A stretch of 56,851 nucleotides of DNA from an uncultured virus (IMG/VR IMGVR_UViG_3300023105_001655) (IMGVR_UViG_3300023105_001655), one strand, 5' to 3'; shown: positions 631 through 48,914, counted from the first letter of the stretch. Notes: generated from the sequence alone by a model not told the origin. A program made the numbers and translations.

Positions 631-708
631 GTTGTTGATTTCAAAGGGAAAGAAAATTCAATTATTTTCGCCAAGCCCCTTGACTTCTGCTTCGGGATGT
701 AGTAAGCT
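627..708 (+). promoter_or_regulatory. Early sigma70-type promoter with upstream IHF-consensus box
   Basis: TTGACT 680-685, 17 bp, TAAGCT 703-708. GTAAGTTGTTGATTT 627-641 reads AAATCAACAACTTAC on the - strand (WATCAANNNNTTR). Confidence 0.65.
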
Positions 709-749
709 AGTAGTATGTTGAGTGATTGAGTTAATAGAGAGAGTAAATT

Positions 750-1934
750 ATGAGTATTAAACAGAAAGATCAACTGATGGCCGCCCTTGCTGAGTCTAAC
801 AACCAGACGGGTATTTTCTCAAAATCTGAAGTTATGGATATCGCCCGTGAGGCTGGTCTCAAAAACCCGATGTGGTTTTTCAAAGAGGCCAAGGTTGGCC
901 GCAATCAGTTTAACCCCGAGATGGTTGGCCAAGTTGTGTCAATGCCCAAACCAACCAAACCAGTGGCGGTTATTCAAACCCAACCCGAACCAGTGGCCGC
1001 TGCTGCTTCTAGGGTTCTAACTCAGGCGAAACTTGCTGTGGAAATTGAAAACCTAGTTCCTGCCGCTGACAAAACATATGTTCCTTTTGGTTTCTATCGT
1101 GACCTAGTGAACATTGTCAAGTCTGGTATGTTCTATCCTACATTCATTTGTGGTTTGTCGGGTAACGGTAAAACCATGATGGTTGAACAGGTTTGTGCCA
1201 AACTCAAACGTGAGGCAATCCGTGTCAACATTTCGATTGAGACCGATGAAGATGATCTGATCGGTGGCAATACGTTGGTTGATGGTAACGTAGTTTACCG
1301 TGAAGGCCCTGTGCTGACTGCCATGAAACGTGGCGCTGTCTTGATCCTTGATGAGATTGATCGTGGATCAAACAAGTTGATGTGTCTACAGGCAATCCTT
1401 GAAGGCAAACCCTACTTCAACAAAAAGACTGGCGAAGTTGTTACTCCCGCCTCTGGTTTCAATGTGATCGCTACTGCGAACACCAAGGGCCGTGGTTCTG
1501 ATGACGGTAAGTTCATGGGTGCTCAGGTTCTTGATGAGGCATTCCTCGAACGATTCGCAATCACGGTTGAACAGGAATACCCGTCTTCCGCTCAAGAGAA
1601 AAAAATTGTTCTCAACAAGATGGAAGTCGCTGACTGCGTTGATGATGAATTCGCCGACAAGTTGGTACTGTGGGCTGATGTGATCCGAAAGACTTTCTAT
1701 GAGGGTGGCATTGATGAGTTGGTTTCAACCCGCCGTCTAGAACACATTGTCAAGGCATACGCCATGTTCAAAGATCGCCTCAAGGCAATTCAGTTGTGTG
1801 TCAACCGTTTCGACACTGACACCAAGTCTGCCTTCATCGATCTTTACACCAAGGTTGATGCTGGTGTTGATCTTGATGCCCCTGCTGAAGACCAGAATGA
1901 TGACAACCCAGAGGCAGATAACTATGACTTCTAA
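750..1934 (+). CDS. cobS: CobS/MoxR-family AAA+ ATPase
   Basis: Walker A GLSGNGKT, Walker B LILDEID, TANTKGRG, AFLERF and STRRL motifs typical of T4-like phage CobS. Confidence 0.85.
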   Translation: MSIKQKDQLMAALAESNNQTGIFSKSEVMDIAREAGLKNPMWFFKEAKVGRNQFNPEMVGQVVSMPKPTKPVAVIQTQPEPVAAAASRVLTQAKLAVEIENLVPAADKTYVPFGFYRDLVNIVKSGMFYPTFICGLSGNGKTMMVEQVCAKLKREAIRVNISIETDEDDLIGGNTLVDGNVVYREGPVLTAMKRGAVLILDEIDRGSNKLMCLQAILEGKPYFNKKTGEVVTPASGFNVIATANTKGRGSDDGKFMGAQVLDEAFLERFAITVEQEYPSSAQEKKIVLNKMEVADCVDDEFADKLVLWADVIRKTFYEGGIDELVSTRRLEHIVKAYAMFKDRLKAIQLCVNRFDTDTKSAFIDLYTKVDAGVDLDAPAEDQNDDNPEADNYDF

Positions 1935-2199
1935 GAAAGATTACAAATACAATGAGGGTCAGCTGATCGCTGACCTTCAAGCATATGTTGATAGTACATA
2001 TGATGAACACTATGCTCAGAACAAAGTACAAACCACCGAGTTTGTTATAGATACTGGACATGGCGAAGGATTTTGCCTTGGTAATATTATCAAATATACG
2101 CAAAGGTATGGTAAAAAAGAGGGCAAGAACCGTAAAGACTTGCTAAAAGTACTGCACTATGCGTTAATTGCACTACATGTTCATGACTTAGAACAGTAG
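1924..2199 (+). CDS. DUF3310-like conserved phage protein
   Basis: HY...GFCLGNIIKYxxRYGKK...DLLK..HY signature. ATG at 1924 overlaps the cobS end. Confidence 0.7.
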   Translation: MTSKKDYKYNEGQLIADLQAYVDSTYDEHYAQNKVQTTEFVIDTGHGEGFCLGNIIKYTQRYGKKEGKNRKDLLKVLHYALIALHVHDLEQ

Positions 2200-2206
2200 T
2201 AAAGGT

Positions 2207-2278
2207 TCCGCCTTAGGGCGGATCGGGGACTGGCGGCCTCTCTCACTCTCTCTCAATTCGCCAGTCCCCGATTTTTTT
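2207..2278 (+). terminator. Double hairpin; Rho-independent terminator with a 21-nt CU-rich loop (candidate antisense RNA)
   Basis: TCCGCC-TTAG-GGCGGA 2207-2222, then a 14-bp stem 2222-2235/2259-2272 with loop CCTCTCTCACTCTCTCTCAAT, followed by T7. Confidence 0.85.
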
Positions 2279-2280
2279 GT

Positions 2281-2324: not shown

Positions 2325-2660
2325 ATGGCTTATCGAATTAGAATTACATTTACCCGTCAATCTGAGAGTGTAGAGTGGCCTTTTTGGGCAGCTGACCTCT
2401 TAGGATCAACCTATGAAACCAAGGCGTCTGCATTTCAAGATTGGTTGACTGGTAGAGACGAAGCTGATGTGGTGTTTGATGCAGAACCAGACGGCAATAC
2501 CGTTTATTGTGATATCATGTTTGCTAATGAAGATGCATACGATGATTATACTTCTGCTTGGACATCAGCTGGTCTTGAAGACCAATTCCAAGATCAGGCT
2601 TTCCTAGATTATTGTACGACAAATAACGTCACCATTGCTCATACTACGGAAAATGTATAA
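2325..2660 (+). CDS. Hypothetical protein (paralog of next gene)
   Basis: GGAG SD before ATG 2325. Shares F.DWL and DG.T...F..E..Y.DY motifs with 2653-3021. Confidence 0.7.
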   Translation: MAYRIRITFTRQSESVEWPFWAADLLGSTYETKASAFQDWLTGRDEADVVFDAEPDGNTVYCDIMFANEDAYDDYTSAWTSAGLEDQFQDQAFLDYCTTNNVTIAHTTENV

Positions 2661-4521: not shown

Positions 4522-5450
4522 TGAATGAATTTCTCTGGGTGGAGAAGTACAGACCCCAAACTATTTCGGAGTGTGTTCTCCCAAATAGACTGAAGGATGT
4601 ATTTCAATCTTTTGTTGACCAGAAAGAAATTCCTAACATGTTGCTCTGTGGTACTGCCGGTACAGGCAAGACCACAGTGGCACGTGCTCTTTGTAATGAA
4701 TTAGAATGTGACTACATCATTATCAATGGATCGGATGAGTCCGGCATTGATGTTCTCAGAACAAAGATTAGGGACTTTGCAAGTACGGTCAGTTTCGGCG
4801 GTAAGACCAAGGTAGTTATCCTTGACGAGGCGGACTATCTAAACCCCAACTCTACGCAACCAGCGTTGCGTGCCTTTATCGAAGAGTTCTCCAAGAACTG
4901 TCGATTTATTTTTACATGTAACTTCAAGAATCGAATCATCGAACCGCTTCATAGTCGGACAACGGTGGTAGAATTCAAACTCAAGAAAGAAGAGAAACCT
5001 CAGATGGCATCTGCCTTCATGAATCGTATCTCTGACATCCTTGATCAAGAAAGTATTCAGTATTCAGAAAAAGTTCTTGCTGAACTTCTGATGAAATATT
5101 TCCCAGACTATCGTAGGACGCTAAACGAACTACAACGGTACTCAAAGTCTGGTGCAATTGATGAAGGTATTCTGAGTAACATTGCTGAAGTCAACATGAA
5201 GGGATTGTGTGATAGTCTCAAGGACAAAGACTTCAAGAAGATGCGCCAGTGGGTTGCTAACAATGTAGACACCGACCCACAAGGGTTGTATCGTAAAATC
5301 TATGATACTCTGATGGACAAAGTGGTACAGGTTCCTCACTTGGTGTTGTTGATTGCTGACTACCAGTACAAGTCGGCATTTGTTGCTGACCAAGAAATTA
5401 ATCTTACAGCATGTCTTGTTGATATTATGGCCAACGTGGATATGAAATGA
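4521..5450 (+). CDS. gp44: Clamp loader large subunit (AAA+)
   Basis: LWVEKYRP, GTAGTGKT, ILDEAD and PLHSR motifs. Confidence 0.95.
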   Translation: MNEFLWVEKYRPQTISECVLPNRLKDVFQSFVDQKEIPNMLLCGTAGTGKTTVARALCNELECDYIIINGSDESGIDVLRTKIRDFASTVSFGGKTKVVILDEADYLNPNSTQPALRAFIEEFSKNCRFIFTCNFKNRIIEPLHSRTTVVEFKLKKEEKPQMASAFMNRISDILDQESIQYSEKVLAELLMKYFPDYRRTLNELQRYSKSGAIDEGILSNIAEVNMKGLCDSLKDKDFKKMRQWVANNVDTDPQGLYRKIYDTLMDKVVQVPHLVLLIADYQYKSAFVADQEINLTACLVDIMANVDMK

Positions 5451-15076: not shown

Positions 15077-15205
15077 TTTGTAAGGATATTTTTTTCCTTT
15101 AAAATCAATGACTTACATTTTTTTTAATTTTTTTTGCTTTTCCTTTTAAATCAATGGCTTACAGATGTTTAAAAACTTGACATCTGCCCCAATAGCTGTC
15201 ATAAT
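15066..15205 (+). promoter_or_regulatory. Early sigma70 promoter with three IHF-consensus boxes
   Basis: Boxes at 15066-15079 (-), 15102-15116 (+) and 15148-15162 (+) among T-tracts; TTGACA 15177-15182, 17 bp, TG.CATAAT 15200-15205. Confidence 0.75.
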
Positions 15206-15239
15206 ATATGTGTAAATTGAGTTGAGAGAGGTTTTTTTG

Positions 15240-15626
15240 ATGTTTAGATTGTTTCAGTTAGATGTTCCCCGTTCCGAGTTTGATGCCGTCAATGAGATGG
15301 GTTGGACGGAGGCGATGGAAAAGTTTCCCCGAGTTGAGGCTCACATGGCACTGACCATGCGTGGTTCCGAGGCCTATGTGACCGAGTATGATCAATACTT
15401 CCAACATGTCGCTGACATCGATGTAAACGATTGTGAACAGGCATTTTTGGTTCACAATAATCCGCATGGCAATGAGGATTACGAAAAGTTGATCACTCGC
15501 CATGCTCAACAACATTCGATGTCAGTTGGTGACATTCTCGTTGGAGAATATGGTGAAGTCCTAATGGTTGATCCAATGGGTTTCACTCAGTTGATGAGTT
15601 CTTTTGTTGGTGCGGAGGCTGCCTAA
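15240..15626 (+). CDS. YodL-like domain protein
   Basis: C-terminal HSMSVGDI...VDPMGF matches the YodL-type (S.SV.D...VD..GF) signature. Confidence 0.6.
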   Translation: MFRLFQLDVPRSEFDAVNEMGWTEAMEKFPRVEAHMALTMRGSEAYVTEYDQYFQHVADIDVNDCEQAFLVHNNPHGNEDYEKLITRHAQQHSMSVGDILVGEYGEVLMVDPMGFTQLMSSFVGAEAA

Positions 15627-16930: not shown

Positions 16931-17007
<77 letters not shown>

Positions 17008-38731: not shown

Positions 38732-38740
38732 GGAGAGAGT

Positions 38741-39721
38741 GTGAAAACCGATTTAACACAAGAAAGAACTTACTTCAAACCATTCAACTATCCTTGGGCA
38801 TACGAGGCGTGGTTGAAACATGAACAGTCTCATTGGTTGCACACTGAAGTTCCCATGGCAGAAGATGTAAAAGACTGGAAAAACAAATTATCAAAAGAAG
38901 AACAGGCGTTTCTTACTAACATCTTTCGTTTCTTTACGCAGGGTGACATTGATGTTGCCGGTGGTTATGTAACAAACTATCTGCCATATTTTCCACAACC
39001 AGAAGTACGCATGATGCTCGCAGGATTTGCTGCAAGAGAGGCATTACATGTTGCGGCTTATTCTCACCTCATTGAAACACTCGGAATGCCAGAGTCAACA
39101 TACAATGAATTCCTTGAGTATGAAGCAATGCGTGATAAGCATGATTACTTTACAGACCTATCAAATCAGAATGGCACCAAGGAATCAGTAGCAACAAACA
39201 TTGCCGCATTCTCTGCGTTTACTGAGGGTATGCAGTTGTTCTCCTCTTTCATTATGTTGTTGAACTTTCCACGACACGGTAAGATGAAGGGCATGGGCCA
39301 GATTGTTACTTGGTCTATTGTAGACGAAACAATGCACGCCGAGTCTATGATCAAACTGTTCCGCACATATGTAGAAGAGAATCTTGAACTGTGGAACGAC
39401 AAATTGAAGTCATCTATTTACACCATTGCAGAAAAGATGGTTGCACTGGAAGACAAGTTTATTGATCTCGCATTTGCCATGGGCCCAATGGAGGGACTAT
39501 CAAACGAAGATGTTAAAAAATATATTCGTTACATTGCAGACCGCAGATTGATCTCTCTTGGTATGAAGGGTATCTTCAAGGTGAAGAAGAATCCTCTGCT
39601 TTGGGTCGAGGAAATGATTAATGCTCCTACTCACACAAACTTCTTTGAGAACAGAGCAACAGACTATGCCCGTGGTGCATTGTCTGGTGACTGGGGAGAT
39701 GTATGGGGGTCAGCAGCATGA
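38741..39721 (+). CDS. nrdB: Ribonucleotide reductase class I beta subunit
   Basis: W...E, EALH..AY, EG..LFSSF, DE.MH and NFFE.RATDY motifs. Confidence 0.96.
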   Translation: MKTDLTQERTYFKPFNYPWAYEAWLKHEQSHWLHTEVPMAEDVKDWKNKLSKEEQAFLTNIFRFFTQGDIDVAGGYVTNYLPYFPQPEVRMMLAGFAAREALHVAAYSHLIETLGMPESTYNEFLEYEAMRDKHDYFTDLSNQNGTKESVATNIAAFSAFTEGMQLFSSFIMLLNFPRHGKMKGMGQIVTWSIVDETMHAESMIKLFRTYVEENLELWNDKLKSSIYTIAEKMVALEDKFIDLAFAMGPMEGLSNEDVKKYIRYIADRRLISLGMKGIFKVKKNPLLWVEEMINAPTHTNFFENRATDYARGALSGDWGDVWGSAA

Positions 39722-48534: not shown

Positions 48535-48645
48535 GCCCTTGATTTTATTGAAGAAAATAATTTCAACTTTTTTGCTTTATCCTTTTGAATCAATGGCTTA
48601 CAGAGGCAGCTTTTTCTTGACTTCTGCTTCCAGATGGCTTATAAT
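48531..48645 (+). promoter_or_regulatory. Early sigma70 promoter with two inverted IHF-consensus boxes
   Basis: GTAAGCCCTTGATTT 48531-48545, GAATCAATGGCTTAC 48587-48601, TTGACT 48617-48622, 17 bp, TATAAT 48640-48645. Confidence 0.8.
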
Positions 48646-48677
48646 GGCCACATAAGATGATGAAAGAGAGAGTGAAT

Positions 48678-48914
48678 ATGGTTATTGATTTTGTTGGTGC
48701 TCAGGATGGTGGTCTGGTCTTCTTTGGCGATGCTGCTGATCCTATTGGTTATGGTTCTACTGTCGAAGAATGTGCAGAGATCATCGCAAAAAATGGTCTC
48801 GCTTCTCAGGTATCAGGATCGTCTTCAATGGACTTTGCCAGTGAAGAGGGTTTTGAAAATGATGATGATGCCATGATCATGTTCCGCAACGCAATCAAAT
48901 TGTCAGGGGTTTAA
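48678..48914 (+). CDS. Hypothetical early protein
   Basis: ATG after the (GA)n leader; SSSMDF..E.GF motif. Confidence 0.65.
   Translation: MVIDFVGAQDGGLVFFGDAADPIGYGSTVEECAEIIAKNGLASQVSGSSSMDFASEEGFENDDDAMIMFRNAIKLSGV

Follow-up and report, generated by a model that had tools for sequence, protein, structure and literature searches.

The Gram-positive small RNAs RNAIII and RsaE pair with the Shine-Dalgarno (SD) regions of several mRNAs through unpaired C-rich hairpin loops. CpxQ and SdhX of enterobacteria are Hfq-dependent small RNAs derived from 3′ UTRs; they share the terminator of their parental mRNA and carry the seed upstream of it. The phage RNA c4, ~77 nt in length, derives from the operon of its target, exposes in loops the sequences that occlude a ribosome-binding site, and controls a single downstream gene in the immunity system of temperate phages. 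Phage T4 sequesters early ribosome-binding sites (gene e, soc) in a local hairpin and carries out early shutoff with the protein factors RegB and RegA, RegB being an endonuclease that acts at GGAG and inactivates early mRNA. To our knowledge, early-gene timing in T4-like marine phages is poorly understood, and we know of no recognisable middle promoters or known T4 early-shutoff factors in them. The icaR mRNA of Staphylococcus aureus has in its 3′ UTR a pyrimidine-rich anti-SD motif complementary to its own SD region (PMC3868564); the P1/P7 c4 antisense RNA is mentioned in PMC12197685.

The locus described here is the terminator hairpin of an early operon that starts with a cobS-type gene. It lies in a 56,851-nt stretch of DNA (the window; IMGVR_UViG_3300023105_001655), which is a piece of the genome of an uncultured T4-like marine myovirus. 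The loop of the hairpin is unpaired, pyrimidine-rich and complementary to the SD regions of six early genes and of nrdB. The hairpin and the matching leaders suggest, without proving, a small RNA that controls early-gene translation. With icaR it has in common that an mRNA carries, in its 3′ end, an anti-SD motif complementary to its own SD; the motif of the cobS operon differs in lying in the loop of a terminator hairpin, in belonging to a phage early operon, in being known from sequence alone, and in matching several early leaders besides its own no less well than that one. Compared with RNAIII and RsaE, the phage loop is much longer (21-32 nt) and CU-alternating instead of CCC-based, its complements are lineage-specific and 9-14 nt long, and it sits at an mRNA 3′ end and not in a free-standing gene. 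Like the 3′ UTR-derived small RNAs, the hairpin shares its terminator with the parental mRNA and its pairing region is conserved; the putative regulator would arise from an mRNA 3′ end, its level would follow operon transcription, and a candidate processing site precedes it. Unlike CpxQ and SdhX, the phage element has its pairing region in the terminator loop, not upstream of the terminator. It differs from c4 in having no Rfam match and in pointing to a group of early genes, in a phage that is lytic and T4-like. With T4 gene e, soc and RegB it would share the task, phase-dependent translational silencing of particular messages, but here a remote RNA loop is proposed to perform it.

A search of the whole window at the gathering threshold against Rfam 15, which covers C4 antisense RNA and cyanophage motifs, returned only a tRNA gene at 16931-17004 (65.7 bits with the tRNA model). 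Relaxed searches, at E-values up to 10 for positions 600-2400 of the window and up to 1 for six relatives, gave only chance matches of snoRNA type. The element is not described in the article text searched; the supplementary table of IMG/VR candidate structured RNAs belonging to PMC10690425 may list the hairpin with its terminator-like candidates. It would represent a new RNA family that applies a known principle where it is new, both in its location within a terminator loop and in its use for the early regulon of marine phages of T4 type.

The cobS operon and its terminator hairpin

CobS of the window matches phages of the Kyanoviridae, and its top full-length matches among isolates are Pelagibacter phages at 51% identity. 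One complete record, G001 (165,637 bp; 165.6 kb), has 97% of sampled words in common with the window and, being near-identical, served as a whole-genome stand-in for the window phage in the target tests. The photosystem gene psbA (PF00124) was not found in the four records searched (G001, G002, G003 and G006). Since G001 lacks psbA, the host need not be a cyanobacterium, and this absence and the Pelagibacter phage matches at 51% indicate that the clade may infect heterotrophs rather than cyanobacteria. The cultured phages S-CAM9, S-RIM2, P-SSM7, HTVC008M and Mosig have neither the hairpin nor the leader type, and no cultured phage with the hairpin was found among the isolates examined. The features of the operon and its surroundings are as follows.

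679..708, + strand: sigma70-like early promoter of cobS, with extended -35 element CTTGACTTCTGC at 679-690, 17-nt spacer and -10 element TAAGCT at 703-708
716..749, + strand: cobS leader, with loop-complementary segments ATTGAG at 725-730 and AGAGAGAGT at 736-744
750-1934, + strand: cobS-type AAA ATPase gene (Pfam AAA_5, CbbQ_C), in the early operon 750..2199
1924-2199, + strand: DUF3310 gene (Pfam DUF3310), second gene of the cobS operon
2207..2222, + strand: hp1, a small hairpin on the 5′ side with 5-6 stem pairs and a 4-nt loop (RNAfold)
2223..2271, + strand: main hairpin hp2, 14-pair stem (2223-2236 with 2258-2271) with a closing G-U pair
2273..2279, + strand: run of seven T, forming with hp2 an intrinsic-terminator-like 3′ end
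2281-2288, + strand: T4-type late-promoter motif TATAAATA, followed by AGAGAGTAAATTA at 2289-2301
2325..2660, + strand: downstream gene of 111 aa and no known family, SD GGAGAGA at 2314-2320

The two genes of the operon match PHROG 249 and 480. The hairpin begins 8 nt past the stop codon of the DUF3310 gene, and no promoter of its own was seen. In RNAfold predictions the 21-nt loop of hp2 (2237-2257) is pyrimidine-rich and unpaired in both the minimum free energy (MFE) and centroid structures, 10 of the 14 stem pairs are G-C, and the MFE of -38.7 kcal/mol (z = -4.84) was equalled by none of 200 shuffles. The 14-bp stem and 21-nt loop that the earlier note had placed at the end of the cobS operon were thereby confirmed, and all strings and coordinates that it quoted for the loop and the leaders proved correct when the sequence was read again. 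Among 75 candidates in the window with stems of at least 9 pairs, this is the sole strong intergenic hairpin with a large pyrimidine-rich loop; the loop 22-mer occurs once in the window even with 3 mismatches allowed.

As in intrinsic terminators, the G+C-rich stem of hp2 leads directly into a U-run. Its loop, however, is 21 nt long (19-32 nt in relatives) instead of the typical 3-8 nt, and a consensus terminator scan restricted to loops of 3-8 nt did not list the hairpin. Just 5′ of hp1 and past the stop codon, the motif (C/A)(A/G)GTT is kept in nearly all relatives (2200-2206 in the window). We take it to resemble the RNase E preference RN|WUU, and the conserved motif could be a putative processing site.

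Beyond the terminator, TATAAATA is over-represented in the window (7 sites against 2.43 expected). The 13-mer AGAGAGTAAATTA forms a direct repeat, at 738-750 in the cobS leader and at 2289-2301 past the late promoter, that brackets the operon. For the 111-aa downstream gene, isolate phages yielded no relative.

Complementarity between the loop and early leaders

The cobS promoter shares the exact 12-mer CTTGACWTYTGC with two other early promoters of the window (positions 679, 15176 and 48616). With at most one mismatch the 12-mer has 7 matches against 1.58 expected, a number reached in none of 100 shuffles. The leaders behind these promoters and the start region of nrdB carry complements of the loop.

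15176..15239, + strand: promoter and leader of a 128-aa gene at 15240, with CTTGACATCTGC and -10 element CATAAT
48616..48677, + strand: promoter and leader of a 78-aa gene at 48678, with CTTGACTTCTGC and -10 element TATAAT
38733..38741, + strand: nrdB start region, with the 9-nt complement GAGAGAGTG at the GTG start

In the cobS leader the complement stops 5 nt short of the ATG at 750. The 15240 leader contains AATTGAG (15215-15221) and TGAGAGAGG (15223-15231), so that its complement comprises 15215-15221 and 15222-15231 and ends 8 nt before the ATG, and the 48678 leader has the 11-nt complement AGAGAGAGTGA at 48665-48675, ending 2 nt before the ATG. The matches that the earlier note had reported for these three leaders and for nrdB are thus all present. 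Its label "YodL-like" for the 15240 gene (15240-15626) finds no support, as the gene has no Pfam or PHROG match. The nrdB gene sits inside an operon and not behind a class-A promoter. In the window as in G001, other sigma70-like early promoters, 3023 and L115 among them, are followed by ordinary leaders that contain no loop complement. Early promoters of G002, a 137-kb relative, fall into two classes, those with GA leaders (4) and those with ordinary leaders. Long GA leaders, which the earlier note had set against GA tracts elsewhere, cluster at a single class of early first genes.

A conserved box of ~30 nt, TCCTTTTnAATCAATGGCTTACAGA, lies upstream of class-A early promoters (15140-15165 and 48580-48604 in the window), also at a third G001 promoter (L116) and in G002 (L090, L101). 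By eye, the cobS promoter seems to have this box inverted, at about 618-652. The box presumably fits the IHF-type consensus WATCAANNNNTTR.

The loop was said in the earlier note to be antisense to the ribosome-binding regions of three IHF-boxed early operons, and part of this claim has to be recast. Ranked by RNAduplex energy over all 40-nt windows of the + strand, the three leaders come merely 8th to 10th, and stronger duplexes are predicted inside ORFs (for example 47425 at -27.1), so the claim does not stand on duplex energy alone. The specificity of the loop emerges only when translation-initiation regions are compared with each other. Among 207 initiation regions of G001, the top 4 duplexes belong to first genes behind CTTGACWTYTGC-type early promoters; the 48678 gene ranks 2nd (-21.4), the 15240 gene 3rd (-21.0), nrdB 5th (-19.0) and cobS 7th. 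Against 200 composition-preserving shuffles of the loop on the same regions, 27 regions reach -14 kcal/mol or better (12.2 ± 4.5 for shuffled loops; 27 reached by 0/200), and the mean energy of the top 6 is -20.8 (-17.1 ± 1.1 for shuffled loops; matched by 0/200). At initiation regions, then, the antisense relation stands, as it does in the co-variation described below. An unbiased scan of all 31 large-loop hairpins of G001 placed the cobS-operon hairpin first in complementarity to initiation regions, and by covariance-model search it is single-copy in that genome.

On the gene strand of G001, perfect complements of the loop measuring 9 nt or more occur at 17 sites, and at 7 of these a start codon follows within 10 nt. 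The 7 were read from sequence flanks; the automatic count is 4, the crude gene calls in G001 having missed three start codons. The loop-complementary starts are:

DUF7717 gene: perfect complement of at least 9 nt
PHROG 10415 gene: 12 nt, perfect
cobT-like "peptidase" gene closely preceding cobS: 11 nt
cobS: 9 nt
15240 gene: 10 nt
nrdB: 9 nt
48678 gene: 11 nt

Further targets of the loop are therefore seen in G001 outside the window, and the cobS operon, which carries the hairpin, is itself a target by complementarity. With at least six early first genes and nrdB complementary in G001, the restriction to three operons falls, and what remains of it is that three promoters of the window share CTTGACWTYTGC. 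The complements lie 2-8 nt from the ATG and 9-27 nt from the -10 element; this spacing indicates that they are anchored to translation and not to the promoter, as expected of an element acting in RNA. Composition nonetheless contributes a background. (GA)3 tracts number 96 on the G001 gene strand and are ~5-fold enriched at ribosome-binding sites generally (15/207 regions against 3.0 expected). Since ribosome-binding sites as a whole are enriched in GA-rich, SD-like sequence, any CU-rich loop will be somewhat complementary to them.

Hairpins, loops and leaders in relatives

In IMG/VR, 80 loci encode relatives of CobS (64-100% identity), and the DUF3310 gene comes next in 80/80. Of the 76 assessable loci, 36 have a pyrimidine-rich hairpin with a large loop no more than 200 nt downstream, a count that includes L038, probably a coding false positive; 40 have none, and 4 further loci are too short. 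The hairpin lies ~1.1 kb further downstream in the L020 lineage, and a T-run follows it in most relatives. A CU-rich sequence that follows the DUF3310 gene in L038, L046, L048, L049 and L066 was considered as a larger structured RNA and dropped; by eye, its frame reads like a glycosyltransferase-type start.

The stems are unalike between lineages, with 18 distinct 5′ arms in 21 hairpins and a mean arm identity of 38%. Hairpin alignments made with MAFFT did not follow the structure; a covariance-model alignment and a loop-anchored count took their place. Among 24 distinct sequences, compensatory changes occur in 18/19 pairs of the two hairpins: all 5 pairs of hp1 show changes on both sides, and 13/14 pairs of hp2 are compensatory. 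Paired cells amount to 89.2% (58.5% in shuffles). The covariation score, counted on the covariance-model alignment and hence on an alignment fitted to the structure model, is 0.725, against 0.215 in shuffles (0/500 reach 0.725) and at most 0.118 for slid partners. The loop retains a pyrimidine run of 7-11 nt and is 19-32 nt long. Judged from these substitutions, the hairpin structure is under selection. The relatives have the covarying stem and kept CU loop that the earlier note had proposed to look for. Relatives that keep the stem and lose the loop would, according to that note, speak against its reading; the relatives show the opposite, a loop that is kept on a stem that changes.

Loop and leaders also change together: where early leaders are not (GA)n, the loop sequence shifts in step with them. 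In the following loci the leader is a perfect complement of the loop of the same lineage.

L005, cobS leader: 14 nt
L040, cobS leader: 13 nt
L026, cobS leader: 11-12 nt of non-GA sequence, TATAGTTAGGA(A)
L068, cobS leader: 10 nt
L020, cobS leader: 10 nt
G006 (contig of L068), peptidase leader: 14 nt, immediately preceding the ATG
G006, two other early leaders: 8-9 nt
L025, peptidase leader: 11 nt
L028, peptidase leader: 10 nt

The perfect complements of 12-14 nt in L026 and G006 are neither (GA)n nor low-complexity sequence. Over 9 loop classes, the longest perfect complements between each loop and its own cobS leader add up to 84, compared with a permutation mean of 62.4 (p = 5e-5), and in a subset of 6 classes the true assignment of loops to leaders is the best of 720; the lineages being related, these tests are independent only in part. 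The own complement measures 7-11 nt in these 9 classes in the window from -45 to +3, and up to 13-14 nt in a scan of the whole locus. Some lineages fit less well. In L010-L017 the cobS leader has a perfect complement of just 7 nt (own ranks 5 and 12 of 16), and the best loop match, of 11 nt, comes right after the downstream late promoter. L029 and L035 also have just 7 nt at cobS. No second start-adjacent target of at least 8 nt was found in the 3 kb examined for L026, L029, L035 and L040.

A possible regulator of early translation

Whether the 3′-end RNA of the cobS operon exposes an extended loop directed against ribosome-binding sites, pairs with early leaders including its own, and represses them is, in our estimate, an even question. 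The proposed mechanism would run as follows. Transcription of the operon would end in a module of ~75 nt comprising hp1, hp2 with its 21-nt loop, and a U-tail. Whether still attached to the 3′ end of the terminated mRNA or released as a small RNA, the hp2 loop would pair over 9-14 nt with the SD or leader of early mRNAs, ending 2-8 nt before the start codon. The proposed targets are the cobT-like peptidase gene, cobS, the 15240 and 48678 genes, two more early genes outside the window, and possibly nrdB. Pairing would block binding of the 30S subunit and damp early-gene translation as the operon transcript accumulates, and the result would be a delayed negative feedback that rises with early transcription. 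From the sequence we infer each element of such trans-acting repression, namely a stable 3′-end species, pairing in vivo, repression, and action in trans. A wider version, to which we give somewhat less than even odds, would see a "master anti-leader" RNA of an uncultured marine T4-like clade, the loop being a composite complement of the leaders of the whole early regulon and co-evolving with them, and the accumulating RNA switching off early translation as an early-shutoff timer, the part played in T4 by proteins such as RegB and RegA. If true, this would be a compact, protein-free timing device for an early regulon and a new RNA family for which the comparative support, from stem covariation and from covariation of loop and target, is unusually clear. 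It would also mean that regulatory information can be hidden in terminator loops, which standard terminator and small RNA finders ignore.

The loop might instead pair only with the leader of the same cobS mRNA, in the manner of icaR, and tune its translation or decay with no role in a regulon. The own cobS leader is complementary in 9/9 loop classes, by a mean of 9.3 nt (6.6 nt for cross pairs), and in G007, described below, the complementary SD again belongs to the gene that precedes the hairpin. Pairing confined to cis is nevertheless unlikely, because the longest complements in G001, G006, L025 and L028 lie at other early genes and not at cobS (12, 11 and 11 nt against 9; 14 against 10; 11 against 9) and the loop resembles the union of several leader variants. 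Should only this 5′-3′ interaction hold, it would remain the first case of the mechanism in a phage that the literature searched has yielded. The sign of the effect is not readable from sequence, and an activating or protective loop that stabilises, opens or organises early leaders would draw on the same complementarity and covariation. Such a loop would, however, cover the SD 2-8 nt before the ATG, and pairing of a small RNA with an SD normally blocks initiation; an activator is for us a slim prospect. A similarly slim one is that the main partner of the loop is the GA-rich region and SD of the downstream gene, so that early read-through transcripts would be silent, while late transcripts from TATAAATA do not contain the loop, a logic like that of T4 gene e in early transcripts. 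The module of terminator, TATAAATA and GA-rich sequence is conserved in relatives, a perfect complement comes right after TATAAATA in L010-L017 (11 nt) and L007 (10 nt), and the downstream region prefers its own loop (sum 64, against 52.7 for cross pairs; p = 0.0019). But this complement is weaker than that of the leaders and not universal: it is missing in 4/9 loop classes and just 4-7 nt long in L001, L018, L025, L026, L040 and L068. In the L010 lineage it lies 25-30 nt upstream of the downstream SD, and masking would leave the matches to distant early leaders unexplained.

Two further readings dispense with RNA pairing as the function of the loop. An ordinary terminator with a low-complexity loop would owe its complementarity to composition, as a by-product of CU-rich sequence facing purine-rich SD sequences. 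The frequency of (GA)3 tracts and their enrichment at ribosome-binding sites generally are in keeping with this, as are the stronger duplex energies of intragenic sites. It is disfavoured, and we hold it improbable, by the failure of all 200 composition-preserving shuffles to match the real loop, the complements of 12-14 nt in L026 and G006 that are not low-complexity, the preference of loops for their own leaders (p = 5e-5), and the retention of a 21-32-nt loop through complete turnover of the stem. Alternatively, the leader motif and the inverted copy in the loop could act at the DNA level, as duplex sites for a protein of the phage or its host or as recombination repeats flanking the operon; the complementary segments do form an inverted repeat ~1.5 kb apart, and the 13-mer direct repeat flanks the operon (738-750 and 2289-2301). 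Stem covariation that keeps the site single-stranded in a loop, motif spacing tied to the ATG and not to the promoter, and an antisense orientation in every loop class make a DNA element very improbable.

Low-depth contigs from four metatranscriptome runs, which cannot show transcript ends or levels, included none over 2172-2275. Contigs start at 741-747 in the GA leader of cobS (X1, X2) and, in X1, at 2299, 11 nt past TATAAATA; contig ends are not transcript ends.

Similar loops occur in other settings. In the IMG/VR contigs L138, L142, L152 and L158, of an unrelated type, the 19-mer of the loop is part of a long CT-rich low-complexity tract with no hairpin. G011, which is without the cobS hairpin, has an intergenic hairpin at 59815-59850 on the minus strand with a CU-rich loop of 14 nt, followed by a second terminator hairpin. 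This loop has 9-nt complements to SD-like sequences, including that of the peptidase-gene leader; it is a weak candidate and could reflect chance. G007 (L163 and L164), an unrelated contig, offers an independent context: the same 19-nt loop is borne there by a hairpin whose stem is unrelated and which comes directly behind a gene for a DnaB-like helicase on the reverse strand (hairpin at ~4890-4960). The SD region of that helicase gene contains a 10-nt complement of the loop, and a second, ordinary terminator hairpin follows.
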